DNA of 64,000 nt from Takakia lepidozioides. Its lineage: Eukaryota; Plantae; Bryophyta. The stretch lies in contig CM060733.1 of the NCBI GenBank assembly GCA_030704615.1, forward strand, positions 76,260,001-76,324,000, read 5' to 3'. The notes beneath the pieces are model-generated. The model was not told the origin of the DNA and made no database searches. It saw nothing but the letters and a program-made list of their open reading frames with translations. Positions 4,183-43,862 of the stretch are shown in pieces (position 1 is the first letter of the stretch; every line of letters starts with the position of its first letter). The position numbers were made by a program, and so were the translations under genes.

Positions 4183-4906
4183 TGTCGCACACCTCAGTTC
4201 GGTAAACTCCCCTTCAAGTCATAGTTACTCGCTTTGATGCGCGCGCCTGACTCCCAACCTGGCCGCCGGGCCAACTTGGAGTTTCGGCTGCTCACCGGGA
4301 CATAACGGTCCCCTTCCGCTTCCCTCTAAACCCTCCACCTATTTGGGACTAGGAGAATTCCCTTTGGTAGATGGCAGTCCGGAACAGCTCCCCACTCTTT
4401 GGTCGCTTTCCGGCTCGCTCGCTTACTCACTAGTTTTTGGTCACCAACGGGCTTGCACCGTTCTCGGGGTTACTACTCCCTATATATACTTCTGTAGCTG
4501 TCCGCGGGGGTTTCATAACCAGCCATGCCATTTTATGGCGAACCACCACGAAAACCCTCGACTCCCGGTGGTGAGTCGCGGTGAGTCTTGGCCCACTCAC
4601 CGCGGCCCCAATGGACCGTGATGAGTCCCAAGACTCCCCACGACTCCCACCTCGAGGTCTCCACCCCATGGTGAGTCCTATGCCACCCCCACTAAGTCCC
4701 ACTAAGCTACCACCACCCCTTGTGGAGCCACCTCCACCGCAACCCGGTGTGCGGGGCTCCACCTAGTGAGCGCCTCCGCCTCCTTGAGTGCCTTGGGCAC
4801 TCAAGGGTGCTTCAGCCCCCCATACCTATCGCTGCCGCTGCCCCCACCACAGGGGCAGCCCCTCATGTGTCCCGACCCCCTGCCCTCAAGGCAAAGGGCC
4901 GCGACA
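4183..4906 (-). repeat. 5' LTR (724 bp) of the chromovirus-like element
   Basis: TGTCGC...GCGACA inverted termini, PBS-adjacent, TATA-like TATATATA at about 4481-4488; interrupts the gag of the next element. Confidence 0.85.
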
Positions 4907-7900: not shown

Positions 7901-7982
7901 ACCAGCGACCTTTCAGAGAGTGATAAGTGAATCTTTTCATGAGTATCTGGATGATTTCATGCAGGTATTCTTGGATGATTTC
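4907..7982 (+). pseudogene. gag-PR-RT of family B copy 1 (stop, frameshifts, RT truncated)
   Basis: ORFs 4766..5470, 5521..6612, 6603..8021; CYYCNQPGHRKAAC; KDHFPLPF; MDGFSGYNQ; MPFGLCNAPATFQR; ends at FLDDF. Confidence 0.9.
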
Positions 7983-10900: not shown

Positions 10901-11172
10901 TAAACTTCTTGCCCAACAGGTAATGCCTGAATTTCTTCACTGCATAGATCATTGCCAATGCTTCTCTTTCCGTTGTGCTATAGTTCCTTTCAGCACTGTT
11001 CATCAACCGGCTAGCATAGTACACAAGTGAATCTATATTCCCTGTAACATTCTGGGCTAACACCGCTCCCAACGCTTCTCCTGATGCATCGCAGTGAACA
11101 TGGAATACTACATGCCAGTGAGGGTTAATCAGCACAGGTGTAGTTGTTACTGACAGTGTAAGTTCCTCAAAA
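7983..11172 (-). pseudogene. Inverted segment: RNase H-integrase plus N-terminus of the extra ORF
   Basis: ORF 8214..11135: HCDASG, NYSTTEREALA, HHCC zinc finger, GLDFVGP, SDQGSHF, YYPQGNGQAE, GPY. Its C-terminal part matches 33243-33695. Confidence 0.9.
9027..9270. repeat. 30-bp tandem repeat (about 8 units) built of CACAGC decamers after integrase
   Basis: Unit TGTGATGGGCTGTGATAGGCTGTGTCACGT; translates as (RDTAYHSPSR)n. Confidence 0.9.
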
Positions 11173-14062
11173 ACAACTGCAATGGAAGAGCAAGGCTCTT
11201 CACACAGTGAGGGTGGACTAGCAGGGCATCCCGAGACTAAGAGGCAGAGACGGGGAAAGACTGTAGTGGCGGATCCACTGGCTTCACGGATTCCGCATGA
11301 TAATGTTTCCCAAGCTCATGTGCAGGAAGGGGCACAGCAACACAGAGAAATGTTATTACTGGAAGCAGGACCTTCCAAGAGGGAGGAGGAAGTTACTTCT
11401 GTATCACAACCATCACAGCCAGCTGATCGACTTGTCACAAGGTCACAAGTTGTCCATGCAGCTCAACCAGAAATAATTGATTTGGAAAGAGAAGGGTTAG
11501 ATATTCCAACTACAGAACAGATAGTGACAGAAATGGAGAAGGGGGACCTTCTCTATGAATATTCTGGTCTGGTCAAGGAGACAGAGATTCCAGAGGTGCA
11601 ACAGTTGCCCAAGGGAAATCCTGAGGTGCATATAATACACACACCTGTGTCGGAGGTACCACAGGCGGAAGGTCATGACACTGTAGCACCGGTGATAGAT
11701 GAAGTAGTTCAGGAAGAAAATCCGGTGGGACAATGGCCTGAATGGTTCGTGAGACATCACACTGTTGAAGATCAGGAGGAACAGCAGCAACCTCACCATG
11801 ATGACCCTCAACAGGCAATGCTGATGAGTTCCATAGGCATGACACTTAATTTGTTGGGGACTTATGTCAAATCCCATGTTCCAATTACCCAATTGACAGC
11901 CTTGAGAGAGGAACTCAGGAAGGAGTTTGAGGCTGGACTAGCCACTGAGTGTGCAAACAAGGTCGATGAAGAGGTCACTCTCAAGATGCAGCAGGACTTG
12001 GGAAATACAGAAGTGGCTTTGCAATTGGCCAAGGAACAATTGATTGAGGCAGGCCTCGCGCAAGACCAGTTACACGAAGCACATAAGCAACAGCTATACC
12101 AAATGCAGGTGCAGCATGAAAGCAAGTTGCAAGAAGTGAATGCACTACATACGGAGTTGCAGACAGTGCATGACAGGATGGCGATACAATGTGCTACATT
12201 CACAACTATGCTTGACCAATCTACAAAAGAAATAAACAGTCAAGCGGAAAAATGTACGAAGGCAAAAGAAGAGAATGTTGAGCAAATGAAGCTCATTGTC
12301 GATATGAAGAATACAATCTGTCGCAATGAAGATACTTTCAAGCAATACAAGCAGATTGAAGCTGATCAAGAGAAGCACATCGTGGAGTTGCAACAAACCA
12401 TCATGGCCAATAGAAATGAAATCGCGGTCAATAACAAGGCTTGGAAGGAAGCCAATAATCTACTTGCTGCTTATGTGCAATTGGTTGAACCTCAGGCGAA
12501 GCGCATGGAGGCTTTACAACAGCAGTTGGAATTGTACAAGCTAAGAGAGGAGCAAACTCTCAGGGGAACCACAAGCAACTTGGTGGATAACAGCCTTATG
12601 CAGGTCTGGTTAGCACAAGGGCCAGTAGAGGGCAAAGAACCACGAAAGCTCACCCAAAGCGAGATGAATGAGCTTAGGCTGCAGGTGCAGAACATTGCCA
12701 CAACTACTATAGACAATGTCTATAGTAGGATAGCAGAGTTACAAGAGGATGTAGACGGACTGCAGACTCAAGTGGAAGACCTCACTTCAAACATCGACAA
12801 AAGAGTCTATATCCCTCAGGAATAGCTAATGGCTTCTTATTTACAAGCCATAACTTTGGCTTTTCAGTCTTCACAGGAGGTGCAGGAGATGCCAATGATA
12901 CAAGAGCCAGTACCACCACCACCACAACAAGTCACTGTACCAGTAGCTGAACCTGTGGTTACTACAACCACACCACAGCCACCACAGCCACCACAGCCGG
13001 AGGTATGGGGCAATGCCGCTTTTAACCCACCTAAAACTCCAGCTGCAAGGGAGTACAGTAGGGCTATGATTATGCCCTTCAACCAAATTCCCATCATGTT
13101 GGATTTGGCTTGGAAAGAATTTAGTCCTCCGCAGTCATTCGCACATTACTACCAAATCATGCGTATTTGGCTGCCAGTGGCAACTAGGACTAAAGTTCTT
13201 CCAAACAATCGACATATTGAAGATCATCACTTTGCACAATACTGGCACGAGGCAGGTACCATGTTGAGGGAATTGATTGCTTTCCAGGTTGTACATGGAC
13301 TCATTTACACCAAGACTAAGGAGGTAGCAAGTATTGTCATGGGATGTATACTACGCTGCTTGTTTTCTGGTACGTTACCACATTGAGCAACAAAAGATGC
13401 AAACACGCTTTCTGAGTTATTCCAGTGGAGATCATTGGGTATTACCTTCGGTGCCACCTCATATGTACCTATATGACCCAAAAGTTATGATGCAAAAGGA
13501 TTCTCAAATTTGTTCATGGTTTCAAGCGGCCTGGAACCATTTGTCAACACAGAAATTTGGCATTGATGACATTTTCTATAAGGGACATGTGGCATGGAAA
13601 TACTTGCACGCTGCACCAGTAATTGGTACCCCACTCACCTGGACAGACAAGGAGCTCAGTGTCTACACCAATTTTGCTGTTCAGCGGTTACACCAAGTTG
13701 TAGAATACAAACTTCCAGACATGGTAGGACAGCATTGTATGCCCCAGATGATTCCACAAAAAGTTCAAAAATTAAAACACCTGAGAGGCGATGAGGATTC
13801 TGATACAACTGTTTCTTCACCGAATTCTTTTGACATGGGAGAAGACTATGCAGTTCAGATGGCAGAGAAGAAGCGACGGGGGTCTCCTATGCCGGAAAGG
13901 TTACCTCGATATCAGCCTCCAGAGGGCCTCACTTATCCAGGTAGTGATCAACCATCTCCGTCAACCAGAGCCAGACCTCGGGCTCGTACACACAGTCCGC
14001 CACGAAACTCTCAACGTCAAAAAGGTGCTCACTCACAAAGGTTTGCTAGTCGAAATCAGTAA
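11173..14062 (+). pseudogene. Remainder of the large extra (post-integrase) ORF of family B; coiled-coil rich, function unknown
   Basis: ORFs 11182..12825, 12829..13386, 13334..14062 are collinear with copy 2 (34010-35715). Confidence 0.8.
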
Positions 14063-14100: not shown

Positions 14101-15050
14101 TGTTAGAGGACTGTCGGGGACTTAGACACTTATACGGGATCTGTAGGGTACCCTTAATTTTTGCACAGACTGAGACCAACAGGAGCCTTAGGGGTGACAG
14201 CAGCGCACTGTAGAGGGGGGTTACACAGCCCGTCACAGTCGTCACAGTCGTCACAGCCGACACAGCCAACACAGCCCGTCACAGTCGTCACAGCCGACAC
14301 AGCCAACACAGCCCGGCACAGCCACACAGCCAGTCACAGCCCGACACAGCCAAACACAGTCGCACAGCCAGTCACAGCCCGTCACAGTTTCACACAGCCA
14401 GTCACAGCTTGACACAGCTGTCACGATCATAGGGAACGAAGAGTAGGACAGGGAACGACTGTGGGGAACAACACCTGCGAAGGGAACATGTTAGTTCACA
14501 GACGACGGTTAGTGAGGAAAACGGTTAGAACCACGGATAGGAAGATAAAGGGAGAAACGGGGAATTGAGGGATATCATTCGGAGGAGGACTTCTTGGTCA
14601 TGGAGGAGAGGGGATCGGGCAGAGATGAAGAACGGAAGTGAAGATAGAGAGATGATGAGTAGATGCTTGATATATGTAAGGCTGTAATGATATTGTAGAG
14701 CAGATTAGAGACACAATGGCTTCGGCCTGATACCTGATAAATCATAATCGGATACTTTTACGATACAATCATACTGTGTAGAGAGATCTGAGTGAAGCTG
14801 TGGAATGAATGGATGAGTTGATGGAATCCAATAGATTGATAAAGCAAACTGATACTTAATTATCAATGGTAAGATAGCTAACATGAATACCAAAAGGGAA
14901 ACAAATAGGAAACACCCCCATGATACACTAGCTGTAGGTCATGACTGATTGTTCTGCGCGGGCTGAGTACTTAGAGATTTCCAACTCTTCTATCTTGGAG
15001 TTTCCGCCTCGAATAGCGAAGGGATGGGTGAGTAGAAGCCGCGCGACAGC
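14101..15050 (+). repeat. 3' LTR of family B copy 1, about 75 bp short at its 3' end; PPT at about 14084-14097
   Basis: GAGGGGGGAAGGGG-TAA-TGTTAGA; aligns with 35754-36645; CACAGC repeat block at 14223-14425. Confidence 0.88.
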
Positions 15051-16183
15051 AGCCGACCTCGACATTCATGAACGAAATTTGAGGACTCTTGCAGAGAAGG
15101 AGCCTCCCGCTCAAGATACCCCGGGTAGAGGTAGAAAGGCAAAGGGAAAAGATGTTGTTGGTGTTGTGGGGAAAGGAAGGGGTAGAGGGAAGGTGGCACA
15201 AGTGCAGGGAAGTGTTGCAGATATTGGCCCAATGGTGCATGTCCAGCAGACTCCACCGCATGGTAGGGGATCCGTGAGAAAGAACAAGGGGGTGGTTGAT
15301 CCCAAAGACCCGTACCATGCAGTGGAACATCCGACGAGGGTCATTCGCCCTACCAGGTTGGAGATGGCCAACGTCGGATTCCTTGCCATGATGGAGTCCA
15401 AGAAATCTGATTACAAGGGCGAGCCATCACCAGTGTGGGAGAGGATTGTAGAGTTCCTCGGCACGGTGCGTGTTCTCTTTTGCTTCTTCTCTGCAGTGGG
15501 CATGGATCATTTCAATCCTCTTGAGTATTCCATTGTAATTTTGTTTGCAGGCTAAAATGACCAAATCCTGGGTGAACGGGAGGGAGAAGCAATATGCAGC
15601 CGAACTCATAATCTTGGACATCCCTGATGGTTGGCAGTCCCGGATGTCCCTCCATCCGGTGCTTGTCCGGGTTGGAATGCTTTTGATGAGCGCTACTGGT
15701 GGTGGGTTTTCTCCTTTTGCAATTTTTTCCTGTCCGATGCAGGTGTTTTGGTGCTCATACAGTCCGCCGACGTTCGCTGTCGCCGTGCACTTGCCAGCTA
15801 TTTGAAAGCCTCGGGCATGAGAGTCCTGAAGACATGGAATTGTGTGAACAGCATGTACTTTACGAAGGGGGATCGTCCGGGAGAGATGGTAAATTTGCCT
15901 TCTTCTTCCTCTTCTTGGTGGTTCTCGGATGGAGTTGTGTAGGTCGCTCGAACTCATATGTAGGGGCCTGATTTGTGAAGCTTCTTAGTTCCTTCTAGAT
16001 GTGTTGTTCGCAGACTCGTTTGTTTGAAGTTGTTTGTCTCGTCCAAGTGCATCCACCAACGACTCTGGCCGGCATTTCGGAGTTCGCCATCACTCATGGG
16101 GGCAAGTTCATAGACGACAGGACAGATCCTCCCACAGATGACATGCACCACAACTACGTCGACAGCAACGTCTGCTTGCGAAG
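15051..16183 (+). pseudogene. Partial spliced gene with a beta-class amino-MTase-like domain (paralogue of 25500-26150)
   Basis: AELIILDIPDG...PGWNAFDERYWWWVFSFCNFFLSDAGVLVLIQS...KTWNCVN; introns at about 15466-15550 and 15889-16013; frameshift at about 15631; cut by the N gap. Confidence 0.6.
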
Positions 16184-16683
16184 NNNNNNNNNNNNNNNNN
16201 NNNNNNNNNNNNNNNNNNNNNNNNNNNNNNNNNNNNNNNNNNNNNNNNNNNNNNNNNNNNNNNNNNNNNNNNNNNNNNNNNNNNNNNNNNNNNNNNNNNN
16301 NNNNNNNNNNNNNNNNNNNNNNNNNNNNNNNNNNNNNNNNNNNNNNNNNNNNNNNNNNNNNNNNNNNNNNNNNNNNNNNNNNNNNNNNNNNNNNNNNNNN
16401 NNNNNNNNNNNNNNNNNNNNNNNNNNNNNNNNNNNNNNNNNNNNNNNNNNNNNNNNNNNNNNNNNNNNNNNNNNNNNNNNNNNNNNNNNNNNNNNNNNNN
16501 NNNNNNNNNNNNNNNNNNNNNNNNNNNNNNNNNNNNNNNNNNNNNNNNNNNNNNNNNNNNNNNNNNNNNNNNNNNNNNNNNNNNNNNNNNNNNNNNNNNN
16601 NNNNNNNNNNNNNNNNNNNNNNNNNNNNNNNNNNNNNNNNNNNNNNNNNNNNNNNNNNNNNNNNNNNNNNNNNNNNNNNNNNN
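16184..16683. other. Assembly gap (500 N)
   Basis: Run of exactly 500 N. Confidence 1.
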
Positions 16684-16979
16684 AGCTCGACAGAAGTGTC
16701 CCCACCAGGATTCGGCGTGTGTATCAGATGGCCACGGCGGGCTCAGCTGTTCGCAATGAGGTGTACACCATCACCATTTCAGAATTACCCACCTGCAATT
16801 GCACCGACTTCCAGATCATGGCGAACAAGGGGGCATCATACTGCCCTTGCAAGCATTTGTACTACGTGTACCTAAAGAGACTCCGTTGTAATTCCACAAC
16901 TCATCACTTCATACATGCACCAGGGTTGAGCCCCCAGGAGGTTCACACTCTTCTGAATATGGATCCAGGGGACCAGTGA
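16684..16979 (+). CDS. C-terminal fragment of a SWIM zinc-finger protein
   Basis: YTITISELPTCNCTDF-x10-PCKHLYYV matches the SWIM CxC-xn-CxH pattern; 5' end lost in the gap. Confidence 0.8.
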
Positions 16980-17727
16980 GCTTGGCTTGCGGTCCCCATA
17001 CAATGGTACGCCCATCCTTTTCGGATAGTAGAACTGTACTGCTGCCAGTACCTCAGACTCTGGCCACAGAAAGGTCCGACATATGTCTTGCCTACCAGTA
17101 ACCTGTTTTGCTCGAACTAAGATATTACTATATCGTTCACTTGTTTCCACGTGCATGTATTTTTGTATGTTGGAGGGTTCATGTTTTTCTGCTTTCCGAA
17201 AACTTGCTTTCCTCATTCGACCTCCGACAAGGAAATGCGGCGCCGCATTTCCAAGTATCGTCGTAGGTACTGGTAGAGGCGGCCTTCGCCAACACCAAAC
17301 CGCTCCGAAATTTCGCACGTGCGAACCCTAATGCGGCACCCTATTTCCCAGTTCAGTTGCAAACCTTTCCCGCCGAATACCCGAAGAAGACAGAATTGTG
17401 AAGTACTGCAGACTGTATTGGTGCAGACTCCATTGGTTCAATCGCGACAAAAGGGTCAGCTTCATTCCAATGTTAAGGCATGTAGAACTGCGGAATACTC
17501 TATACAGGCCAGTATGCGACGTCCTTTTGAAGTGGTATACTGGATTTCCCGTTGCACGGTCACTTATTTCCATGAGCGGATCTAAAAAACCATGAGCGGA
17601 CTTGTTACTGACGACATATCTTCGCCGCATTACATGATCTGGAACGTCCAAAAACGGCAAGGTAAAATAAAAAACTATTATTTTAATACTTGTTTAATCT
17701 GCCGCATTTCCAAATTTGGAGGAGTCC

Positions 17728-17830
17728 GCTCATGAAATCCGCGTATCTTAGACTTCGGCTCACCGCTCATGCGGCTCATGCGGCTCATGGCTCATGGCTC
17801 ATGGTTTCTGCTCATGAAATAGTAAACCTC
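17728..17830. repeat. Short GCTCATG tandem cluster, possibly a subterminal repeat of the SWIM/palindrome-bearing element
   Basis: About 7 GCTCATG copies just before the switch to Gypsy sequence. Confidence 0.45.
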
Positions 17831-17957
17831 AGAGTAGCCCCATCGTTAGTCGCCATCTTGCAATCTGTGAACTTGAGCCAGGACCTCGTGTATTCAAGGT
17901 CTCCTGTAGCTGGGCCTTGCGTTGCTTGTTAGCCTTCCATGGTTGTATCCACTCCCA

Positions 17958-19455
17958 CTATCCAATGCAATGTGGACATAACCAATCCCCATCCGGAACC
18001 ATCTCAAGAGGTGGAGTCAAGCATCTCATATGCCAACCTCTAGAGCATCGATCACACACCAGCATGGTGGCTGCCCCTCTAGCAGACCCACACAACATGC
18101 ACCTCAAACTTGCAGATACCACTGCCAGGTTTGGGTCAATCCTGCCATCAACATTCGGAAGGTGACATGGCGCCTACAATTACGCACATGGTCCTTCCAA
18201 GTTATGCCATCCCGACCCTCCAAGACCAAGACGCCTGAGGGTAAGACCTCCCGAACCCTCAAAATAACACGTCCTGCAGTCACATCCAAGGTCGTAGGAG
18301 CAGTCTGCTGCAGATAGACGTAGTCACCAGGGTTGAATCTCCGAACCCCAGGACGCTAGCCCCCACCACGTATGGTAGCATACCTCAACGTATCACGGTG
18401 TTGTGCAATGGCAAGGTTCTTGAAAGCCATGGGCATGACTTTCTTGAACAACTCTGCACGCTGCTCACATGCACATGCCCACACGTCCGGATCGTCAAGA
18501 TTAAGAACTGTAGCAGCTTCTCTGCGAATGGATGTAGGCAAATCCGGCTCTCGGCCAAAGAAAAGAAAATATGGTGAAAAGGAGGCAAGTGATGCTTGCT
18601 TGCTGAACCTGTAGCCCATGGCTAACCAGGGTAACTGAAGGTCCCAATCTCCTAGGTGTCCCTTCTGCAAGTCATACTTGCGCAAACCCCTCTTTACTGT
18701 CTGAACAACTCTCTCTGCCAAGCCATCGGCCTCAGGATGATCCCGAGAAGTGGTGCGGTGGTCTATCAAGGCCTTGTCACACAAAGCCTAAAACTCCCCC
18801 AAGAACTCTCTCCCTTGGTCCGTGAGTACCTCAGCTGGAGCACCGAATCGGCTAAGCTCACAATCCAAGAATGCATACGCAGCTCCTTCACTAGCCTTAT
18901 CAGGCAATGGAACCAACTCAATCCACTTGGAGAAGTGCTCCACCATGACCAACACGTACTTGTTATGGCGCATGGTCAGTGGCAACGGCCCTGCGAAGTC
19001 AAGACTCCACCTGTAGCCCAATCCCATGATCGGAAGAAGGTGCAATTGTGGAGTAGGGGCGTTGAATGAAGCACGCACCCTGTCACACACCATGCACCTA
19101 GCCACAAATTGTTGCACCTCTGTGTGCATACCACGCCACCAATACTGCCCTTGCAGTAAATATGAGTGCGTCGCACCCCAAAATGCCCCAACTCCTCATG
19201 GGCATGCCGCACTAACCGTGCCCGCTGTGTTGGGTGAGGCACAATCCTCACTCGACCATCCTCCTACACTTGGAGCAGGTGTGTCCCCTCCCACTTGAAC
19301 CTCTTGGCTCGTTGTAGGATCCGATCCCTCTCCTTGGCAGTCACAGTGGCTGCAGTGTCTCCAGTGCGGAGGTAGTCCAACACAACTAAATCCTCATGTA
19401 TATCTTTGGCGCCACCTTGCTCATTGCTGGCCTCAGGATCCTCAGATACTTGATC
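17958..19455 (-). mobile_element. Ty3/Gypsy integrase fragment with C-terminal PHD finger (family C)
   Basis: HEELGHFG..CMVC, WSLDFAGP, LTDQGREF, HPEADGLAE; then CMLC-x10-CDRC-x4-H-x2-C...WLCPHC at 17967-18101. Confidence 0.9.
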
Positions 19456-19931
19456 TTTCCCAAGTTGCGGAGGACAGCAAACTATAGCGTAGGAATTCGG
19501 AGCCATCGAACACCGCACGGAGTTGGCAAGTGCGAGGTTCAGTATAGCGACAGACCAAGGCTCACAGGCACCATCTAAGTGGATCTGCGGAGTCCATCGA
19601 CGATTGGAAGTCGCACATTGAAGTGGAAAGTATTGTTTCAAGCTACATGCATGAAGGTGGGAGGTTTGATTCCATAGCCAGTAAGTATGACAATGATGGC
19701 CGATTCGGTGACGAAAAAACATCTCCTGACAGTTTCTCCTGAGGGTGGATCCAGCAGTATTCTCGGTGCAGACAGGAACGTTCGCACTGACAAGTGCCAG
19801 GACTGTTAGTTAAAACAGTCAGACAACCAAGTTGTGCTTATCAAGACTGGCCGCAATGTTGTTTCGGAACAATGCAACCCATTCAGGTTCCAGATTTCCC
19901 GTCCCGAGTGATTCTTTCGATTGTTGGTGGA

Positions 19932-21610
19932 CGGAAATACGGCGCCGCATTTCCGTTTTGCTTCTTGGTCATGCTCCAAAGCGACGGAAATGCGGCACCG
20001 AGTTTCCGTCCGGGGGAAACCTTTATACTCTCCAGAACGGAAATGCGGTAACGCATTTCCATCCAGCAAGCACGGTATGTGAAGGTGGAACGGAAATGCG
20101 GTACCGCGTTTCCGTTCTGATTGAGAATTATGAACAACGGGAACAGAAATGCGGCACCGCATTTCCGTCCGAGTCGCACTTTTCCGACATTCCAGAACGG
20201 AAATGCGGCGCCGCATTTCCATTTTGTATCTGATGCATGGAGCTGAGGGATAGAAATGTTGCAGCACATTTCCGTCCTTAAAAGACATTCATACTCTCCA
20301 TAACGGAAATGCGGTACCACATTTCCATCCACCAAGCATGGTATGTGAAGGTGGAACGGAAATGCGGTACCGCATTTCCGTTCTGATTGAGAATTATGAA
20401 CAACGGGAACAGAAATGCGGCACCGCATTTCCGTTCTGATTGAGAATTATGAACAACGGGAACAGAAATGCGGCACTGCATTTCTGTCCGAGTCGCACTT
20501 TCTGACATTCCAGAACGGAAATGCGGCGCCGCATTTCCATTTTGTATCTGATGCATGGAGCCGAGTGCGATTCCGACAGCTTCATACAGCGCAATTCCGA
20601 CCGCTTGAGACATTCATACTATCCAGAACGGAAATGCGGTACTGCATTTCCGTTCTGACTGAAAATCGTGAACCATCGGAACTGAAATGCGGCAGCGTAT
20701 TTCCATCCGAGTCGCACCTCCCAACATTCCAGAACGGAAATGCGGCACCGCATTTCCGTTCTGATGAAATATCCTGAAACATCGGAACTGAAATGCGGGC
20801 GGTACCGCATTTCCGTCGGAGTCGCACCTTCCGACATTCCAAAACGGAAATGCGGCGCCGCATTTCCGTTTTGTATGTGAGGCATGGAGTTGTGGAACGA
20901 AAATGCGGCACAACATTTCCGCCAGCGTCAGACGTTAATACTCTACAGAACGGAAATGCGGTACCGCATTTTCGTTCTGACTGAAAATCGTGCGCAAGGG
21001 GAACAGAAATGCGGCACCGCATTTCCGTCCGAGTCGCACCTTCCGACATTCTAGAACGGAAATGCGGCGCCGCATTTCCGTTTTGTATATGGGGCCTGGA
21101 GCTGTGCTACGGAAATGTGTTGCCGCATTTCCATCCATGTGAGACCTTCAAACTTTCCAGACCGGAAATGCGGCACCGCATTTCTGTCCAGGTGAGACCT
21201 CTATACTTTCCCGAACGGAAATGTGGCACGGTATTTCCATTCATCAACTAACGTATGTGAAGGGGGAACGGAAATGCGGTGCCGCATTTCCATTCACATT
21301 GAAAATCTTGAACCACGGGAACTGAAATGTTGTGCCTCATTCCCGTCCGAATCGCACCTTTCGACATTCCAGAACGGAAATGCGGCGCCGCATTTCCCTT
21401 TTGAATCTCATACATGGAGCTGTGGGACGGAAATGCGGCACCGTATTTCGTTCAACAACTAAGGTATGTGAAGGTGGAACGGAAATGCGGTGCTGCATTT
21501 TCTTCCAACAAGTACGGATGTGTAGCTTCGTGATGGTACTTAACGGAAATGCGGCGCCGCATTCGCATTTTCGCTCCAACTCAGCAGACGCTTGGACGGA
21601 AATGCCTTGA
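19932..21610. repeat. Array of about 31 palindromes (C)GGAAATGCGG-NN-CCGCATTTCC(G) at a 53-bp period
   Basis: Starts at 19932, 19985, 20038, 20091, 20144, 20198, 20251, 20304, 20357, 20410, 20463, 20516 ... 21322, 21375, 21428; 29-bp spacers of about five recurring types. Confidence 0.97.
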
Positions 21611-22001
21611 AATGTGAACACGTGGAGCAACGGAATTGCTGCACATGTCGGCACTCTATCTGACTGAAGGGGCATGAGGCGGCGCGGCCTGACCGTTGGA
21701 TAATGATGTTTGTTTTTCGGACGGCAGGCGTACCCTGAACGATTCGAATTTCGTAATGACGCAAAGTCCACGAGGAGACACTTTCGTCCAACCCTTTCGA
21801 ACCCAAGTGGTGCATCACCGCCGTTTCATCTACTTTTGTCGTGTCTCCTCAGTCACCCCTCTCGCGCCCTTTCCATCTGCACTCTTTGCCCCTTTTCCCT
21901 CTCTCTGTTCTTCTTATGCTCGAACCTGAGAGGGGGGGAGTTCGTGCACCAGACAGGAGACCTCGTCGCAAGCTCCGGAAATTATACTTCGGACGTAGGC
22001 C

Positions 22002-25000
22002 AATGCCGAAGGGGAGGAAGCAGATGCGTCTACAGGAGGAGATTGCCATCTCCGAGTAGCAGGCCACTCAGGCAACCCAGCCACCAGTGAGAGCTCCATG
22101 CGATCGGGCTGCGCGCAGCTGATCGAGCACCGAACCCCCCATTTTGCTTCTGTAATTCTTAGACTGAATGCTAGGAGACTTGAATGCAGAACATGTTTGC
22201 ATGCCTAACAGGAAAGGTGGACGTGCTGGAGGGATCGCAGGAATCCGAAGAGCCGCAGGAAGAGTCCGAGGAGCTAGCTGCAGCACGTACACCCACCCGA
22301 TCCCCGAGCGCGGGTATTCCTGCCGGGCCTAGCCCTGTGCGATTCAAAGACGCGGCTTTGAAGGGCAAGTTCAAAGCCCCAGAGATCGACTCGCGTTCTT
22401 CGGTCATGGAGAATCGCCAGCAGGGGTCGGGCCCTTCTCCAGCAAAGTCGAAGAAGAAGCAGCCCGTCCCTCTACTGGCTTCTGAACCGGCTCAGGCCGA
22501 TTCACCCCCCCCCAACGCGAATGAAGCAGCAGGGTAAAAGACAGATTCAATTGCAGCAGACACCTTCACCTGCAAGGATGAGGAAGCAGAAGGCAATCAG
22601 GGCAACGGCCGAACAATCTCCCGCAAAACGCTTCCACGAGCTGAAGCTCAGTTCCTGGAGGATTTCCCGCCTGCAGATGTTGGGGCCGACTCTGCTGCAG
22701 CGAAGGCAATGGGATCGACCGTTGATCTCGATTTGGTACCGGAGGAGGGTGCTGCCGCTCAACGTTCGCAGCAAGACCTCACCCCTGATGAGCAAGCAGG
22801 CCCGGAGGAGGCCTCTGCAATGGCAGAATTGCCCGCAGACAGGCCCCAGAGTGCAGCTCCAGTTGAGGATGCTCCAGCTGCTCAGCCACTACCGGCACCT
22901 ACAAACATGTCTCCGGAGGATTTCAAAGTGCAGCGGATAAAATGTTGGAGGAGACACACAGTAGCATTGGCAGAGTTCTGGGCAGCAGGGTATTCCAGCG
23001 GACTCTTCGAATCCCACTCTGTCGCATGGTCTCCCTTCCCATCGTCAGGCAGGCCCTTCCCGGAGATGTGGATAAGCTCAAGTTCGCATTTCGAGAAGGG
23101 TACCGTCTGGGATCGGCAGCGTTTTACGTTCCATTGAGAATGAGGACGGCGAAACTCGTGGACCCACTGCCGATGAATTGTCAACGTGGGATACCCACTG
23201 GCACACTCGCAACAACGAATTCGAGGCGACGCTGAAGGGTGATCCAGACTTCGGCCATATGTCTGGTAAAATGTTCTTTGTGTGGGACGGGAATCACCGA
23301 CTTCTCGCCTGGTGGGAGTACATCAAGCAGAACCATGCCAAGCACATTGGCTGGCATTACATGGTGGAGTGTGTCATCCTGAAGGTGAAGGCGGCAGACT
23401 CCTCCCTGCTCAAGAATGCCATGGCGGACCTCAACTCATAAGATAGTCATACCCTCCCTAGCACGTTCGAAATGCGGTGCCGCATTTCGGTTTCCATTCT
23501 GGTTTGTTTCCGTGCTTCCGTGTACTGAACTGGAGAGTGTGCCTTGCAGGGTCACTGAGAATGCGTACGTGCATACCCACATGGCACATATGCTGTACAG
23601 GGTGAGGAAAACTGGTCTCACTGATCCGCAGATGTTTGCGGAAATGCTGGAGCCCGAGCTCATTCAGAAAGCCGTTGCAAAAACAGACCGGACATGGTAT
23701 CGTCTCACTATGGATGGAATGGTGGAGGTGATATACAAAGTAAGTCGTCCTCCAATTTCCCTCTGCTCATCCTTCCCCAATTTCCAGTAATGTTTCCACA
23801 TGAATCGAATGTAACGCTTCTGCATGTTTTTGTTGGCAGTCAAACATCAAGCTGGATTTGGCCCATGCCAAACGCTTCTTCATGGAAAGTGAGGGGCAGG
23901 TCAAAACGTTGCAGTCATTGACTGAGCACTTGAAGGAAGCCGGTGTCAAGTCCAGAACCAAATACAAGTCAAAGCTTGTGAAGCTGGTGGCAATTGCAGA
24001 TCCGGCACTTGGACAGGACTTCATCCCCGAGATTGCAAAACACTATTCTCGGGCCATGCAGCCGACCATGCAATTGGAGAAACTGCATCACCTCTCAACG
24101 GCATGTGTGGAGGCGAAAGAGAAGGTGAGGTTTCAATGCACTGAAGTTCCTTCCTAGCAATAGCCACTCTCTTCCAGCTCCTGACATTGGATCGGAAATG
24201 GCAGACACGGTGGCTGTCGATCTGGAATGCATCTGAGAGCATAAGGACAATGTGGTCTTTTCCACTGGAAGTTTCCGACCCTGCAGTGGATGTGTGGCTC
24301 AACCGTATGACTTGGTGGTTCCAGGTAATTCAAGGTACTTCCCCAGATTTGCTTTTCTGAAATGAATTCCCTGAACTGCTACGTGACAATGCATTTGGGA
24401 ATCGCAGGTAATGTCGAATGCGAAGGAGCAAGTCGTAATGCACACAAATTCGTTCGGCTTGTACGTCAAATGGGATGGAACACAGACATTGGAAGACTAC
24501 GTGACACGTTTCAGATGTGCGTACAAGGACAACCTTTTCGCCAGAGAGCTACAGACAGCAAGAAGGAGCGTGGAGTTTACACATCAGGAGGGAGCGGGGA
24601 AAGCTGCAATGCGAATTGTTTACAGGTGAAGCACAGCTGCCCTTGTATGCGAAGCCTGGTTACGAGTTTTGTCTCGGAAATGCGGCACCGCATTCGCATT
24701 TTATGTTTTCGGTGGCACTCTGCGAGTAGGTTGGTCTCAACTTTTGCTCACGCATGCTGACTGCCTTGCAGGTATATGAAATACGTGCTCCTTCAGACAG
24801 GGGCCCTGGCTCAAGAGCCCCCGTTCTTCATGGCTTGGACCGTGGCGGGCCCAAGCTGTGTCTACACACCCGAGATGCAGAAACAATGGCATCCCGCGCA
24901 TCTCGTTGGATGCCCGTGGTACCTGGACATGTCTGGCGGTATTGTTGACGAGTCTTAGAAAGATCTGCATGCCTTGGCAGAAGAGAAGAGAAAGGAAAGA

Positions 25001-26553
25001 CGTGTCCCTGCTGGGCCAAAGTCGGCAAAGGAATCTGCTGCTCTGGAAGAATCCAGAAAGGCAGCTGAGATGGCACAAAAGACGGTGGATGCAGCTGCGC
25101 AGGCCCAACAGAAGGGGTCGAAGAAGAGGACTCGCCAGCAAGGAGCAGCTGTTGTGACACCCGCCAAAACGAAGAAGCAGAAACAGCCTGTTCAGGAAGA
25201 GGGTGAGGAAGAGGACTCCGATGGAGACTTTGCAACCAGCCCACCCCCCCAAACGCAGGCTGCCTCCCCTGTGCCCACCGTTGTCACGAGAGGCACGAGA
25301 ACTGGCTCGGCAAAGAAGGCACTCTTCAACCCCCCAGGGGGGCACCCTTTCGAGCCGGTGGAAATGAAGAGGCCGAAAGTGGCTCCCGAAACAGTAGTCC
25401 AGTGTGTAAATGAGAGTTTCTTGGCGGCTTTGGATGGACGGGCAGCCAAGTTGGCATACATGAAGACCATGGAGGGTCTGAAGGGCAGAGCACTGAAGAA
25501 GGCGACTGCCAAAGAGCCTTCCGACACCCCAGGATTTCAGAATATGGTCTCGTTCTTTGAGAGGGTGTGTGCAGAAAAGGATTGTAGGAGGGGCGGAAAT
25601 GCCACCGAGTGGTCTTGCGATATGATCATCTTGGATATTCCGGACGGAGAGCCTGTGGAAGGACTGCAAGCTTTGCCATCTTGGAACAGGTACTCGGAGG
25701 ACTTTTGGAAGAAAGGATTCGGGCTTGCCCGCATGGTGTTGGACGACAGAGGCTGTGTGGTTGTCCTGGCGAGCAGAGGAAAAAACACTCAGACAGGAAT
25801 TGCGAAGTGGACCCGCAAGAGCGCCGTCCCGATTCTGAAAAAGAAGTGGACGTGCATCAACACACTGGGCCTTCGGTCGGAAGGGAAGAAGGTGATTACG
25901 ACACTGGCACTCGTCCATTCATTTGCTTGGGTGTTTTCAAATGCGGTGCCGCATTCGGTTTCTAATCGTTCCCCCCTGTGTATGCAGACGAAGCAGTTCG
26001 ATGCATACTGCTTTGTGAAGGAGAACTCCACCTTTGCTTTCCGGAAGGAGGGAGGAAAGGTTGACCCGAACTGCGACCCCTCGATTACGACGTTCTGTTC
26101 AACAACGTTCCCAAGGAACTTCTCCCTCATAGCCTCACTTCAACGGAACCCCTGCGGTACTCACGGACTCGGAGCCCTGCCTTCATTCAGACAATTATGG
26201 AGACATGCACAGACGTGGAGGGCACAGTGCTCCACCTCATCTGTGGGATAGGTATGCAGAATCTTGATCTATGCTGTTCTGCAAATTCTCGTTAGGATGT
26301 AGTTTGCAACATCTGAAGCGCCATGTGGTATTGGGTGGATGGCATTGTAACAGGTGCCTCAATGTAGGCTGGGCGGTTTTCCGACCGGCACCTCTTTGCC
26401 TACGAGGAGGATTCATCCGTGTGGGGATCCCATCTGGAAGGGCTGCAACGGAATGTTAAGGCTCCCGACAGAGCGGAAGTCTCCTCGGATTCGTCGGAGT
26501 CCGAGGAAGACACAGTGGACATTGATGCGGAGGAGAACCCGGAATACGAGTGA
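22002..26553 (+). pseudogene. Multi-exon gene: low-complexity N-terminus + ParB/Srx-like domain + helical region + beta-class N4C/N6A DNA methyltransferase-like domain
   Basis: IPLCRMVSLPIVRQAL..KLKFAFREGY and FFVWDGNHRLLA (23286-23309); CDMIILDIPDG (25619-25648); RSPAFIQTIMETCTDVEGTVLHLICGIG-ASM*AGRFSDRHLFAYEED (26170-26412); about 8 introns; several stops and frameshifts. Confidence 0.72.
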
Positions 26554-26622
26554 GTGCAAACATTGTAAGTTTGCAAAGCCTTCTGGGTCATTTATGTCAA
26601 ACGAATTTCCCGACTGTGGTTC

Positions 26623-26757
26623 TCATGTGAGCAGCGTGCAGAGTTGTTCAAGAGAGTCATGCCCATGGCTTTCGAGAACCTTGCCATTGCACAACACCGT
26701 GATACGTTGAGGTATGCTACCATACGTGGTGGGGGCTATCGTCCTGGGGTTCGGAGG
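26623..26757 (+). mobile_element. Short family C integrase fragment, inverted relative to the adjacent gag-PR
   Basis: Near-identical to the reverse complement of 18340-18472 (EQRAELFK..AIAQHRDTLRYATIRGGG). Confidence 0.85.
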
Positions 26758-26759
26758 CG

Positions 26760-29510
26760 CAGCTGTAAAAGTGGCTAGTGTTGGCATCTTGCCCCGCTGG
26801 GCAGCCGCAATACCCCTATGAATGTCACAGGGAGCTGTGCACGGCGACCATCCCCTGACTGCCATCCAGGCCTGTAGGATGCTGACTCTTTCCAGAAGTC
26901 CATGGTGAAGCCCATGGGATATAACACTGCCCCACCAACGAGGACATCGTAAGAGACCGCTTCTGTCACAATGGCCTTGGCTCGCATCACTGAGCCATCT
27001 ACAGGATGATCCGGCTGCAGTCTAATGGCCAACTGATGCCGTGTCATGCCCCGAGCCTACTCTGATCCTCCCAAAGATGTCTGTATCTGGAAAGGACAAG
27101 GCTCCATATCCGCCTCCATGAGGCCCAAACCTGCGATAGCAGCTCTGCCCAACATCAGTGGCTGAGCTCCCGAGTCCAACAAGACCCGAAGTGGCCGGTA
27201 CTTCTTGCCTGCCGGTCCACTCAAAGTGAAAATGCCTCCCTGGTTGTCTAACAAGACAACTGCAGGTGTCACCATGGCGGGCTCAAAGGCTGGCCTAGCT
27301 GGCAGCTCCGTCAATCTGGCAGCTGCAGCTTGCCATGGCGCAGCCGTGGCAGTCTTGACCCTCAAATCCGAGGATCCCTATTCCATTACACCTTCCACTA
27401 ACTCCGTAGAAGATGAAGTGACCTCCCCACTCTCACAGAGTGTTGCTGCTAGTCTGAACACTGCAGGTGGTCTTACCCCCGGCGTCGCAATCATGGTTGC
27501 CGAGAACAGTGGGGCTTGACACACAGAGGTGGCTGCCCCCAATAACACACCGGCTGCACTAGTCTTGGTAGCAGGTGTCAGTGCTGCACGTGTAGCTTTC
27601 CCCAATGGCATAGAAACCTCCGCCTCGGTAACAGTCGGGCGAGAGCTAGGTGCCATGGATGGCGTTGACACTGTCTCCGCCAAGGTGAATGACTGAGGCA
27701 GCCTCGCTTGACGGCTTGCCTCCCCACGTTGTGGATCCAACTCCACCTCTGCACCTCGTGGCTCAGGAACTCGTGCTGCTCCTCGAGTCACGACTGCGGC
27801 AGACTCCACCTGCTCTAGTGGTAGTGCTGCTCCGCACATGAATCCCATGCCTCCCATATCTCCTCCCTCAGGAGCAGGAGGTGGACCATCCCGCCTAGGA
27901 GCCGGTACCGCCTGAGCTATAGCCATGGCAGCGAGCCTCTGCTCTAGCTGCTGAAGCCGATTGGCCATGCCTTGGTCAACACCTTGACCTCCGCGTCCTT
28001 GGCCATGTGGAGCTTGCCCTTGGCCTGCACCTCGTGCCCGACCACCTCGTCCTCTTTGGGCTGGTCCACCTCGCCCCCGGCCACCATTATTCCCTTGGAA
28101 CTGGCCTGGGCGCAACTCGGGATGCAAGTCATAACACTGGGCATCTCCATGCCCATACTTGCCGCAATGCCCACACTGCAACTGTGCAGGCTGTGCTTGT
28201 GCCGGCCTTTTGCCACTCTCTGGGCAATCTCTCTTGACATGGGGTCCTCCACATGTCCAACATATCACCCCTGGTTGCTGTTGGCCTGCAAAAGATGCCA
28301 CGGGCCTCTGCACCTGAGGTCCCCTATAAGCTCCATGGAACTTGGGCTGGGCAACCTTGCCCCCCTGACCACGCTGTGGGGCAGTCCCTTGTGCCTATGG
28401 GCTGACAGCTGTGCCCCGTGCAGGCATGTCCTTGCCAAATCCAATTGTAACAACTCGCTCCTCCACCATGTTGAGCTCAATCCGCTCAGCCAGCAGAAAC
28501 ACATCTGCTAATGTGGGTTGGGCTGCTTGTAACAGGGTTGCATCTCGCACCCTTCTCTTGAGCTCCTTGTCCAGAATTCCATACCAAAACTGGATTGCAT
28601 GACCCATTGGGTCACACTTATCAAGCGCCTGATACGAGTGTACGCCTCTTGCAGGCTCTCACTGGGTTTGCGCTGGAAGTCTTGCAAACTTCGTAGCTTC
28701 TCTGTCCGTACACCTTGGTAGTTCCTCCGCAACTCCTGGAAGAACTCTACCACTGGGTTGAATCTAGGCACATGTGTTGTAGTCGTGGCAGGAGGAGTAG
28801 TAGCACCTTTTGAACTGGTACCACCTGCAGAAGTACCGGCACTACTTGCTCCACTACTAGTGCTGGCAGTGGGAGATATTGGTACTGATGCAGCTACTGG
28901 TCGCGTCGTGCCTCGAGTAATGGAGACGTAGTCAGGTGACCAATACATCCTCCACTCCTCAATCTCTGCTTCATGTCCTCGCCTGAACTCGTGGTAATCG
29001 TCCATAGGCGGGCCTTCCAAATGCTGGAACAGTCCCTTCCACGCCATGAATGGGGTGAATAGTTGTGGGTTGCGCATCTGCTGCAAATCACACCAGCTGT
29101 CGAACTCCTGGATAAAGTCATCCAACTCGATTGTGCCCACAGCTCCAGAGTACCTACGAGGCCCCTTGGTAGCTCCATACATCTCCTCCATGTCGTCCCA
29201 CAACAATGGCGAATGAAACTGCACACCTGTTGATGAAGCCTCCGAGTCTGTGTCTGACTCTGCACTAGTTGAGGGTGGAGATGAAGGTGGTCTGAAACGA
29301 ACACCTCGTCTGGTGAACCCACTCTCACTGCTACTGCCTGTAGCCGTACTCCCCTCAGAACCCCTGGGTAACTCCGTGATGACACTCACAATGTGCACCT
29401 CCCCCACGTGACACTATAAGGCTCTATTACTAATTCTAATAGTGACACGGGTAGGCACCTGTTGCAGTTTAAGGGTCATATCCCAGTGGCTCAGGGCACC
29501 TGCACCTGCA
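26760..29510 (-). mobile_element. Ty3/Gypsy gag-protease fragment (probably family C)
   Basis: Capsid-like RYSGAVGTIELDDF, knuckles CWTCGGPHVKRDC and CGHCGKYGHGDAQC, protease VLLDSGAQP..YDVLVG; frameshifted. Confidence 0.85.
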
Positions 29511-33234: not shown

Positions 33235-36200
33235 ATGCTTACATGCACTTACCTGTTCCATTCTGGGCCAACCATACCTTCATGTTCTGTGCCTTGCAAG
33301 CTTTCCTTCAGCTGTTTCAAACAAAGCCTTTTTGTTCGTCTAGAATGAAGAGAGTGAGGGGAATGGAGGATATCAGGGTGAAGAGCACCACGATTCTGCA
33401 GAAGCAAACAATTGCTACACCGCAGGCAGTGCAGCTGCTAAGGGAGTTGCGATTGGAGGGGCTGTTACGCAAGGACTGGTCCTTGCATCATCGGCAGTAT
33501 TTGATTCAATTTCTTCATAACTTTGAGCCTCGGACGGGAGTTACCCAGGTGAGGGGAGTAGATATAGAAATTACTCCCCAGTACCTGCAGCAATTGTTTG
33601 ATTTGTCATCGGGTCATGTGGATGTGGATGAGCATAGGGCAAGATTGCAGATAAGGAATTTGTTCCAAGAAGGGAGTTTCTTTAAGACTCAAGATTACGC
33701 TTGTACCAAAGCTGAGTACCCAGGGCTCAGAGAAGTTGGCCAAATATTGAACGTTCTGTGTGCCATGAAACAGAATCAACAATATTTGAGCAGGTCATTA
33801 ACAGAGGAGATCTTGAAAGCTTTGAGGGGAGAGGATGTAGCTTGGGCGGAGTTAATGTACAATGGTCTGGTGGACGAGATGAAGAGGTTACAGGGCACTG
33901 CTTCTAAGTCTCCGATCATTGTGTCTGGTCCAGTCATTGCCTAAATCATTCTTGACTCTTGCATACTTGATACTCGGGAACGTAAGGAGATGGGAGTGTT
34001 TGAGGCAGTAACCACTGCAATTGAAGAGCAGGGCTCTTCACATAGTGAGGGTAGACTGGCAGGGCAACACCAGTCTAAGAGACAGAAGCGGGGTATGACT
34101 GTAGTGGCGGATCCACTGGCTTTACGGAAACCGCACGATGATGTTTCCCAAGCTCTTGTGCAGGATGGGGCACAGCAGCACAAAAGGCTGTTATTATTGA
34201 AAGCACGGCCTTCGGAGAGGGAAGAGGAAGTCAATTTGGTACCACAGCCACCACAGCTAGTTGACTCAGTTGTCTTAGAGGTTCCACAGTTAGAACATGC
34301 TGTGACACAATCCCCAATTGCTCTGGACGGAGAAAGGTTGGACATTCCCACTACAGAGCAGGTCGTGGCCGAAATTGAGAAGGGTGACCTTCTCTATGAA
34401 AACTCTGGCTTGGTAAGGGAATCAGTGGTTCCAGAGGTGCAGCGCTTGTCCAGGGAAAACCCTGCTGTGCATGTAATACCCACACCTGTGACGGAGGTAC
34501 CAGGGATAGAATATAAGGACACTGCAACACCTGTGGAGGATGAGGTGGCTCAGGAAGAGGATCTGGTGGGGCAATGGCCTGAATGGTTGGTGAGGCATCA
34601 CACTGTGGAGGATCAGGGAGAACAGCAGCAAGTTCACCATGATGACCCCCAGCAGGCCATGCTTATGAGTTCCATAAGCATGACACTTAATTTGTTAGGC
34701 ACTTATGTGAAATCCAATTGGCAGCTTTGAGGGAAGAACTCAGGAAGGAGTTTGAGGCTCAAATTGCCACTGAGTGTGCTAACAAGGTAAATGAGGAGGT
34801 CAATCTCAAGTTACAGCAAGAGTTGGAGGACACAAAGGCTGCCTTGCAGTTGGCCAAGGGACATTTGATTGAAGCAGGCCTCGAGCAAGACCAGTTGCAT
34901 GAAGCACATAAGCAACAGTTATACCAATTGCAGGTGAAGCATGAGGGCAAGTTGCAAGAAGTGAATGTACTACATACAGAGTTGGAGGCAGTACATGAGA
35001 AGATGATCATACAATGTACTACACTCACAACTATTCTTTGAGCAAACTGCATTAGAAGTTAACAGACAAGGGGAGAGATGTATGAGGGCAGAAGCTGAGA
35101 TAATAGAGCAAGCAAAACTCATTGTTGATATGAAGAATACAATCTGTCGCAATGAGAGTACTTTCAAACAATACAGACAGGTTGAGGCTGACCAGGAGAG
35201 GTACATCTTGGAGTTGCAACAAACAGTCATGGTCAATAGAAATGAACCCTCTGTGGCTAACAAGGCTTGGAAGGAAGCCAATAATCTGGCTGCTGCCTAT
35301 GCGGGCCTGGTTGAACCTCATGCGAAGCGCATGGAGGCTTTACAGTAGCAATTAGATGTGTACAGACTCACGGAGGAGCAGACTCTCAGGGGTACCACAC
35401 AGGATTCCACTTAAAGTTCGGCCGTTAAAACACCTAAGGGGAGACGATGATTCTGATACTACTATTTCTTCAGAGGACTCTTTTGACATGGCAGAGGACT
35501 ATGCACTTCAGATGGCAGAGAAGAAACAACGGGGATCTCCTATGCCTGAGAGATTACCTCGTTATCAGCCAAAGGAGGGTCAGACATTTCCAGGTAGTGC
35601 TCAATCATCTCCATCCGCCAGTGACAGGACTCGGGCTCGCACACGGAGTCCTTCACGCGACTCTCACCGACAGAAGGGTGCTCGCTCACAAAGGTTTGCT
35701 GATCCCAAACAGTAAACCGTGAGGACACGGCTTTTTGAGAAGGGGAGGGGTAATGTTAGAGGGCTGCTTGGGACTTAGACGCTTTTACGGGTTCTGTGGG
35801 GTACCCTTAATTTTTGCGCGGACTGAGACCAACAGGAGCCTTAGGGGTGGCAGCAGCAGGCTTTAGGGGGGTTACACAGCCAGTCACAGCCCGACACAGC
35901 CCGCCACAGCTTCGCACAGCTTTACACAACCAGTCACAGCCCGACACAGCTTTACACAGCCAGTCACAACTCGGCACAGCTTGACATAGCCTGTCACAGT
36001 ACATGGGGAACAGTTATCATTGACAGGGAACGACTGTGAGGGAACGACATCTGCAGAGGGAACGTGTTACTTCAGGGGTGACGGTTAGTTAGTTAGGTGG
36101 TTAGAACAGCTTGCGGGTAGATTAGGAGAGCGGCAACGGGAAGGGGATCACTTCACGGGGAGCGCTTCTTGGTCATGCATGAGAGGAGATCAGGCGGAGA

Positions 36201-42429: not shown

Positions 42430-43862
42430 CCACCATCTGAAAGGTTATTTAAAGATAGATGCCCATGCATTATAAATGGATGTATGAACATTATCGAGAA
42501 TAAATTTTTAGTAAATAGTTGTATGAACGTTTATCGAGGACAAAATTTTGTTTTAAATATACTAAATGGTGACAACTTACAAATTTTGTCAATACATAAC
42601 AATAAATAGTGCATGTGATTCATGACCGAAGTTGATACATTTATTGTAGTTGTTGATTTTTTTTAATTTCCCTTAAAACTCCTTAGAGCCGCCCTAAGGA
42701 ATCCTAAAGTCAAATATAAGAAAAAAAAAATTAAATATTTTTATTTTCTCCTTCTTAGGACTCCTTAGGACTATCCTAAGGAGTCCTAATGGCAATTATA
42801 AATAATAATTTATATGTTTTCATTTTTCCACTCTTAAGACTCCTTAGGGGTACCTTAAAGAGTCCTAAGGGCGACTATTTTTAATAATTTACATATTTCT
42901 ATTCCTCCCCCCTTCCTACAACTATCTAGATGGATGTTCATACATTACAAATGGATGTATGAACATTTATCGAGAACAAAATTTTGTTTTAATTGTAATA
43001 AATAGTGACAACCTACAAATTTTGTTCGTAGATACTAATAAGCGGTACATCCGATTCATAAATATAATGACCAAAGTCGATACATTTATTGTAGTACTTG
43101 ATTTTTTTTATCTCCTTAAATAACATATATATATATTCCTCCTTTAGGACTCCTTAGGACTGTCTTAAGGAGTCCTAAGGGCAATTATAAATAACAATTT
43201 TTTTGTTTTTTTTCCTCCTCTTAGGACTCCTTAGGACTGTTCTAAGGAGTCCTAAGGGCAATTATAAATAATAATTTATATGTTTTAATTTTCTCACTCT
43301 TAGGACTCCTTAGGGCCATCCTAAAGAGTCCTAAGAACAATTATAAATAATTATTTATATATTTTTATTTCTCACCTCTTAGGACTCCTTAGGAGTGCTC
43401 TAAGGAGTCATAAGGACAACTATATATAATAATTTTTTATAGTAATTTATATATTTATATTTTTTCCCTCTGGCCACTATCTAGATAGATGTCCATGCAT
43501 TACAAATGGATGTATGAACATTTATGAAAAATAAAATTTTGTTTTAATTGTAATAAATGATGACAACTTACAATTTTTGCTAGTAGATATCAATAAACGG
43601 TACATCCGATTCATAAATATAATGACCAAAGTCGATACATTTATTGTAGTACTTGATTTTTTAATTTCCCTAAAGAGTCGTACGGGCCACCCTAAGGAGT
43701 CATGAGGACAATTTATAACAATTTATATATATCTTTTCCTTCCTCTTAGGACTCCTTAGGACTATCTTAAGGAGTCCTAAGAATAATTATAAATGTAGTA
43801 ATTTACATCTTTCTATTTTCTCCCTTGTTGAGACTCGTTAGGGCCACCTCAGAGTAATTGTA

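Follow-up and report, generated by a model that had tools for sequence, protein, structure and literature searches.

Palindromes of a tandem array recur singly in predicted introns of a ParB/methyltransferase-like gene in a repeat element of Takakia lepidozioides and are candidate binding sites for its product

The window analysed here is a stretch of 64,000 nucleotides of the bryophyte Takakia lepidozioides (GenBank assembly GCA_030704615.1, contig CM060733.1, positions 76,260,001 to 76,324,000 of the forward strand), and all coordinates below refer to it. It holds a copy of a repeat element, likely a DNA transposon, in which a tandem array of palindromes (19934-21565) is followed by a ParB/methyltransferase-like gene on the plus strand (21917-26553). 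The gene has fern homologues and is a pseudogene in the window copy, while its stops and frameshifts are open in the majority contigs of the family (X4, X7 and X9). Single copies of the array palindrome lie in three predicted introns of this gene, and relatives carry clade-specific equivalents, which suggests that the palindromes are sites bound by the element's own predicted ParB-like protein.

The array consists of 30 units with a 53-bp period in 24 of the 29 intervals, and each unit contains the palindrome GAAATGCGG-YR-CCGCATTTC (written AAATGCGG-YR-CCGCATTT in the five-clade comparison below). In 28 aligned units the mean pairwise identity was 89% for the arms and 38% for the spacers, and the centre was the only variable 2 bp of the palindrome (CA in 12 units, CG in 6, TA in 6 and TG in 4). 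A scan of the window with the AAATGCGGYRCCGCATT pattern (up to two mismatches) gave 61 strand-matches compared to 0.03 expected from shuffles, and beyond the array the pattern starts only at 17233, 17330, 23470, 24678 and 25939. As controls for motif density, the remaining window sequence and the flanks of relatives were used. The last three starts belong to the copies that the first-pass annotation had reported inside the gene (23468-23489, 24675-24694 and 25939-25955); all three strings were found exactly where it placed them, 1208 and 1261 bp apart, and the modelled exons hold none. The other two copies lie outside the gene, one at 17229-17254, 250 bp downstream of an exon of a SWIM-finger gene, and a weaker one from the pattern scan at 17325-17350. 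Thus, the link of the motif to this gene stands for the three intragenic copies, but the motif belongs to the element and not to the gene alone. A CRISPR-like reading of the array was rejected, since its spacers recur in related groups and an Rfam search of 16600-27000 gave no matches. A motif scan of viral contigs returned three near-identical matches in phage coding sequence, otherwise unlike the window, which we took as chance; a viral protein scan and a first metagenome scan gave no matches.

The three intragenic copies sit in introns I2, I6 and I7 of a seven-intron model. Its 897-residue reading starts at 23139, contains one frameshift and two internal stops and, when spliced, aligns across the junctions with fern (Adiantum) proteins. 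Intron positions were compared with a spliced aligner that has no prior on them, applied to 49 representative loci. I2 (23438-23549, 112 nt, phase 2) has the same position in 39 of 45 spanning relatives; its donor is AT in the window copy, where it has decayed, and GT in the X4 and X7 contigs. I6 (24626-24771, 146 nt, phase 2) has the same position in 6 of 12 relatives, and its junction, between IVYR and Y, aligns with the fern proteins. I7 (25892-25987) is 96 nt long here and 97 nt in contigs of X4, X7 and X10; it lies within the methyltransferase-like domain, the relative L005 has an intron within three residues of it, and unspliced homologues cease matching at this point. The other four of the seven introns are free of the motif, their longest match to the array being 8-9 nt: I3 (23740-23839; same position in 21 of 30 relatives), I4 (24125-24204; unshared, with an intron within three residues in 1 of 24 relatives), I5 (24325-24407; same position in 14 of 18 relatives) and I8 (26252-26353; an L005 intron within three residues). 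Retention of I2 or I6 shifts the frame, and I7 is in frame and stop-free in the window copy. In run X9, I4 and I5 are removed by splicing at the modelled GT-AG sites; no RNA junctions were seen for I2, I6 and I7, which X9 leaves uncovered and of which X10 reaches I7 alone, in its 3′ half (both being RNA runs by our guess). The earlier statement that each copy lies in a short intron is therefore upheld by conserved positions, from which the I2, I6 and I7 segments are very likely introns, whereas splicing in RNA was seen for I4 and I5 only.

The intronic copies comprise the palindrome only, and the array spacer occurs in no intron. An X4 contig covering the I2 copy has 6 differences from the window, none of them in the motif. 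The I6 copy (24675-24702 with its 3′ extension CGCATTCGCATTTT, which is common only to the last array unit) lies under an X4 contig with 3 differences, again none in the motif, and the 14 of 15 differences listed for X4 contigs over I7 are all outside it. The I7 copy is shorter, and its 3′ flank CGGTTTC is common to the I2 copy. This flank, together with a derived I6 tail found in the last array unit alone, points to copying. Short templated copying followed by retention fits the single copies better than slippage, in agreement with the first-pass annotation, which had judged tandem slippage a poor explanation for dispersed placement. As for the arrays, taking one spacing per locus at 23 loci, the mean cosine was 0.42 at 10.55-10.6 bp (p ~0.002 compared to uniform spacings), and seven of nine true arrays lie within 0.11 turn of an integer at 10.6 bp (53, 74, 75, 85, 127, 139 and 213 bp). 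Other arrays in the same organism have periods of 53, 63, 63 and 64 bp. Array periods tend to whole helical turns, a result that is suggestive only.

A scan with the ParB exon found 145 relatives, and the 80 best were retained. The protein tree has 53 rows (the window copy, which forms a long branch, 49 of the 80 retained loci and three fern proteins), and motifs were counted in 48 of the retained loci, roughly one for each nucleotide cluster. Recurring palindromes were found in many of these loci and were absent from shuffles. They differ between protein clades, being CTCTCGG-NN-CCGAGAG in clade A, ACTTTYGG-NN-CCRAAAGT in clade C, GGCCTCGG-NN-CCGAGGCC in clade F and GCATTCGG-NN-CCGAATGC in clade B, with a common core of (C/T)GG-NN-CC(G/A). 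Motif-by-clade counts are near-diagonal: 55 copies in 11 of 17 clade-A loci, 38 in 14 of 18 clade-C loci, 4 in 2 of 5 clade-F loci and 3 in 1 of 3 clade-B loci. Off the diagonal there are five A-type matches in 219 kb of clade C and one F-type match in clade A, and the window motif is absent from 282 kb of relatives. The C motif occurs 38 times in 99.8 kb near the gene compared to none in 119.4 kb of flank, where a looser pattern gives 7 matches. These counts support the reading of the first-pass annotation in that motifs differ with protein clade and that the motif is specific to the element and absent from flanking DNA. A candidate motif D (L023) was dropped because it was another part of the repeat unit.

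Of the own-clade matches, 53 lie upstream of the gene, 46 lie within its span but not in modelled exons, and 1 falls in the 41.7 kb of modelled exon; this sole exon match was placed by hand in a 109-nt intron at the I6 position. L039 and L055 each have one clade-C copy in an intron of 109-110 nt at the I6 position, and L082 has six irregularly spaced copies in an intron at the I5 position. Clade-A arrays start after conserved splice positions matching I2 (L037), I3 (L011), I5 (L026) and I6 (L027), and in L020 after a clade-specific splice position; the contigs of these five loci stop before the next exon. Upstream arrays of clade A also seem to be intronic, before the first coding exon. Since the motif differences are younger than the intron positions, each lineage has probably acquired its sites anew or rewritten them. 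Another class of palindrome (ATGCCA-N4-TGGCAT-like) was observed at L046:3357-3517 and at L073:3810-3902 and 12502-12545, close to the SWIM gene and also downstream of the ParB gene, and may represent terminal or transposase sites.

The ParB/Srx-like part of the window gene (22927-23437) has a frameshift in this copy and reads GNHRLLA at the GxxR P-motif, where G116, N117, H118 and R119 are nearly invariant in 25 rows. A model of this domain from L005, which is 45% identical to the window exon, had a predicted local distance difference test score (pLDDT) of 89.8. Its best structural match was KorB (Z 7.7, root-mean-square deviation 2.4, 89 aligned residues; a middling Z by the tool's own note), and the eight rows with Z of at least 5 were KorB, PadC, SerK, sulfiredoxin (two entries), pNOB8 ParB, SbnI and the ParB-like Atu1540. 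The N-terminal domain is thus predicted to have a ParB fold. Which nucleotide ParB-fold proteins bind is not predictable from sequence, according to the available text of PMC12704722. A single-sequence model of the full fern protein P0025 was unusable (pLDDT 34). No exon of the gene reached the Pfam cut-off for any family, profile searches of the PDB gave nothing significant, and single-protein searches gave no matches.

The amino-methyltransferase-like exons (25592-26470) have their S-adenosylmethionine-binding-like motif last, and the assignment is a weak one. Its leads were Atlas scores of 0.86-0.88, a PHROG DNA methyltransferase (E=0.046) and a tblastn match to a phage methylase (E=8), whose last motif was matched at 7.6 bits, a target chosen from that same match; the domain had no Pfam match and no PDB sequence match. 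The catalytic consensus of N6/N4 (beta-class) enzymes is (D/N/S)PP(Y/F/W). The phage enzyme has DPPY at this position, and the window has DIPD, L005 has DIPE, others have DVPT, DLPE or DCPN, and three fern proteins have DLPF. Judged by these motifs, methyltransferase activity in this lineage is doubtful.

The element is multi-copy, as 82 and 80 contigs from two small runs match the window gene. The last exon of the SWIM-finger gene (16689-16979, plus strand; Pfam SWIM E=0.015, below the cut-off) is 41% identical over 69 amino acids to L078, and in X4 the contig depth was 62.5 for the SWIM part compared to 63.2 for the methyltransferase part. SWIM genes lie near the ParB gene, in either orientation, in three locus clusters of relatives, and the SWIM-finger gene is likely the element's transposase. 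Pfam found no transposase in 148 of the 221 long open reading frames around relatives and had no match to pieces of the L078 SWIM gene, which we take to be MULE-like in appearance. Gypsy pieces interrupt the window copy on both sides, and the element ends were not found.

Several other features surround this copy. A piece of a second, different methyltransferase-like gene (14938-16183), family-related and with no ParB part seen, stops at an assembly gap (16185-16684) and is multi-copy in X4 and X7. At 17557-17827, a unit of about 270 bp has imperfect inverted ends rich in GCTCATG/CATGAGC and an X4 depth above that of its flank; it is a candidate element end or a unit like a miniature inverted-repeat transposable element. 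A 133-bp inverted duplicate (98%) of Gypsy integrase DNA (18339-18471 and 26624-26756) flanks the element copy on both sides, and abrupt joints at 17830/17831, about 19457 and 26626 suggest rearrangement. Farther out, pieces of Ty3/Gypsy gag, protease, reverse transcriptase, RNase H and integrase lie on both strands (2634-11315 and 28508-29413), and short tandem repeats lie at 9026-9269, 14223-14424 and 35874-35999. A 79-bp AT-rich tandem repeat (42672-43435) has an internal CTTAGGACT...AGTCCTAAG dyad unrelated to the array palindrome, and an open reading frame on the minus strand (54190-54843) with weak P-loop helicase matches (UvrD E=0.009) is possibly a Helitron piece.

The explanation that we favour, and to which we give somewhat better than an even chance, is that the palindromes are parS-like loading sites bound by the element's own predicted ParB-like protein. 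In support, the copies are present in family-majority contigs, the arms are selectively conserved, and relatives have clade equivalents. The protein would bind the palindrome arms as a dimer and act on its own element; it would load as a nucleotide-gated clamp and slide as KorB does, and sites every 1.2-1.9 kb would load it again along the gene. Through gene conversion or break repair, short templated events would copy the palindrome from the array into non-coding DNA, with only introns tolerating a copy and selection keeping it. The most likely outcome would be that the element regulates its own chromatin and transcription, its CG-rich core being shielded or marked so as to resist host methylation. 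Given the degenerate catalytic motif, binding may be all that the methyltransferase-like domain does in this lineage. The site spacing resembles the distance over which KorB slides, up to 1.5 kb (PMC11790492, available text), a parallel and not a test.

Several observations weigh against loading sites. The avoidance of exons is already expected from coding constraint, and in relatives the motif was found automatically in 1 of 81 two-sided introns at conserved positions (two more were placed by hand); in the nine introns of the intact L005 gene no recurring palindrome was found. The proposal of the first-pass annotation that sites tile the element is thus weaker than it was stated: it covers three of seven introns here, and tiling is optional, most short introns of relatives being without a site. 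An X10 contig, of guessed RNA status, includes the 3′ half of I7 in unspliced form, and its sequence ahead of the palindrome is unrelated. The clade diagonal is partly circular, as these loci also served to define the motifs, and kin have motifs in common even without co-evolution. In the arrays at L023:1-800 and L027:3079-4190 the left clade-A arm has decayed and the right arm is kept, while the 85-bp period persists in L027. A free period scan peaked at 8.5 bp and not at 10.6 bp, and the spacings are not independent. The 51-bp units of clade C are off phase and are open in one frame of L054, so they are possibly coding. On the protein side, the ParB-fold model was built on L005 and not on the window copy, Foldseek with that model gave no match at E<=0.001, and profile and Atlas searches gave no helix-turn-helix match after the ParB domain. 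SerK, SbnI and sulfiredoxin share the fold and are not DNA clamps (PMC12704722, available text). As a separate observation, the 51-bp units (L054:9040-9390; also L065, L035 and L046) read as a 17-residue repeat in L054 and have intron-like T-rich flanks.

A rather unlikely alternative is that the array is functional or merely selfish and that the intronic singles are neutral spill-over, breakage-prone palindromes being spread by templated repair and surviving only in introns. The shared I6 tail and I2/I7 flank indicate copying, the X10 contig changes sequence exactly at the I7 palindrome, and most short introns of relatives have no copy. Introns make up about 16% of the coding span, and the exons are constrained. 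However, the copied pieces are centred on the palindrome and come without spacer, the I2 and I6 copies are unchanged in majority contigs while nearby intron letters differ, the flank of clade C (119 kb) has no copies, and a distant clade again has a single copy at the I6 position. We consider it quite improbable that the sites bind the SWIM-finger transposase or a host factor, like subterminal or internal transposition enhancers. The copies at 17229 and 17325 follow closely on the SWIM exon, the SWIM gene is near the ParB gene in three clusters, and a motif that tracks the ParB tree would equally track a linked transposase. In contrast, in all clades with arrays these are concentrated at the ParB gene and within it, and the published ParB accessory genes, as far as the available texts describe them, belong to different superfamilies (Sola1 and Plavaka), with the Plavaka arrays adjoining the ParB gene. 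A free 2-bp centre between the arms of a dyad is in keeping with binding by a ParB-type dimer. It is very unlikely that the copies act in RNA, as hairpins or by intron-intron pairing that tunes splicing or gives feedback small RNAs: each intronic copy is foldable (-13.1, -7.3 and -6.2 kcal/mol), any two are mutually complementary and the clade-A upstream arrays seem intronic as well, but two of the three hairpins are weak, Rfam is silent in 16600-27000, and the helix-phased periods and the copy outside the transcription unit (17229) point to recognition of double-stranded DNA.

Loading sites for the ParB-like protein thus remain our preferred reading, and a bolder form of it seems to us unlikely as a whole. 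In this form, transposons of non-seed land plants would run a bacterial-style centromere system, in which a nucleotide-gated clamp loads at helix-phased family palindromes, is reloaded at intronic sites that lie about one sliding range from each other and drags a methyltransferase along, so that cytosines are written or shielded against 5-methylcytosine silencing. If the loading sites are real, they would be a convergent answer to the problem solved by VANC, how a short motif can serve to cover a long element, and could supply orthogonal protein-site pairs for chromatin targeting in plants.

The design of a ParB accessory gene with inverted-repeat arrays is already published for algal transposons, as the available texts show, and here too a multi-copy element has a ParB accessory gene, intact in majority contigs, with adjacent inverted-repeat arrays that are also found in relatives. 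In the red alga Bostrychia, PAG3 of a Plavaka (EnSpm/CACTA) element is an accessory gene with an N-terminal ParB-like domain that adjoins tandem inverted-repeat arrays, and self-binding or self-modification was proposed (10.1101/2025.02.11.637652). The window element shares this pairing. Unlike the window gene, PAG3 is fused to a 2-oxoglutarate (2OG)-oxygenase, the methylase being separate (PAG2), and the available text of that report has no mention of intronic singles, clade-specific motif turnover or helical phasing. In the brown alga Ectocarpus, the large DNA transposon Sola1-1_Ec32 encodes a ParB-like domain fused to an N4C/N6A methyltransferase that was proposed to bind and modify its own element (PMC12477816). 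The window gene also joins ParB-like and methyltransferase-like domains, a likeness by description; that element differs in its Sola1 transposase, and the main text names no palindromes as target sites. In these algal accounts, as far as available, ParB accessory genes were proposed to bind or modify their own element without defined target sites, and five clades with different palindromes now provide concrete candidate protein-motif pairs that make the proposal directly testable.

With ParB/parS and KorB/OB, the window system has in common a predicted ParB-CTPase fold with GxxR and dyad sites of 16-26 bp in several copies; unlike them, its gene is eukaryotic, spliced and in a repeat element, and no ParA was seen. 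Phage fusions of ParB with N6N4-methyltransferases exist (PMC12704722), and ParB-helix-turn-helix methylases were described in chlorophytes and chytrids, not in land plants, in the available text of Iyer 2016 (PMC4738411). A literature search, which covered few subscription journals, found no paper on intronic, clade-specific ParB sites in plant transposons. VANC proteins of Arabidopsis VANDAL elements have short family-specific target motifs, often tandem and diverging between families, in introns, intergenic and terminal non-coding parts; the VANC21 motif is the 9-mer YAGTATTAY (PMC5735166), and binding and demethylation of the own element were shown (PMC5735166, PMC10398659, available text). 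The parallel that the first-pass annotation drew with VANC holds for family-specific motifs concentrated in non-coding parts, including introns, and goes no further than analogy, since the window motif is a palindrome and the protein has a predicted ParB fold. Judged by the silence of Pfam and this predicted fold, the window system is probably not a member of VANC/VANDAL, and the parallel is functional. Were the bolder clamp reading true, VANC would be joined by a second sequence-specific anti-silencing system of independent origin, and plant chromatin would have its first sliding DNA-regulatory clamp of this kind.

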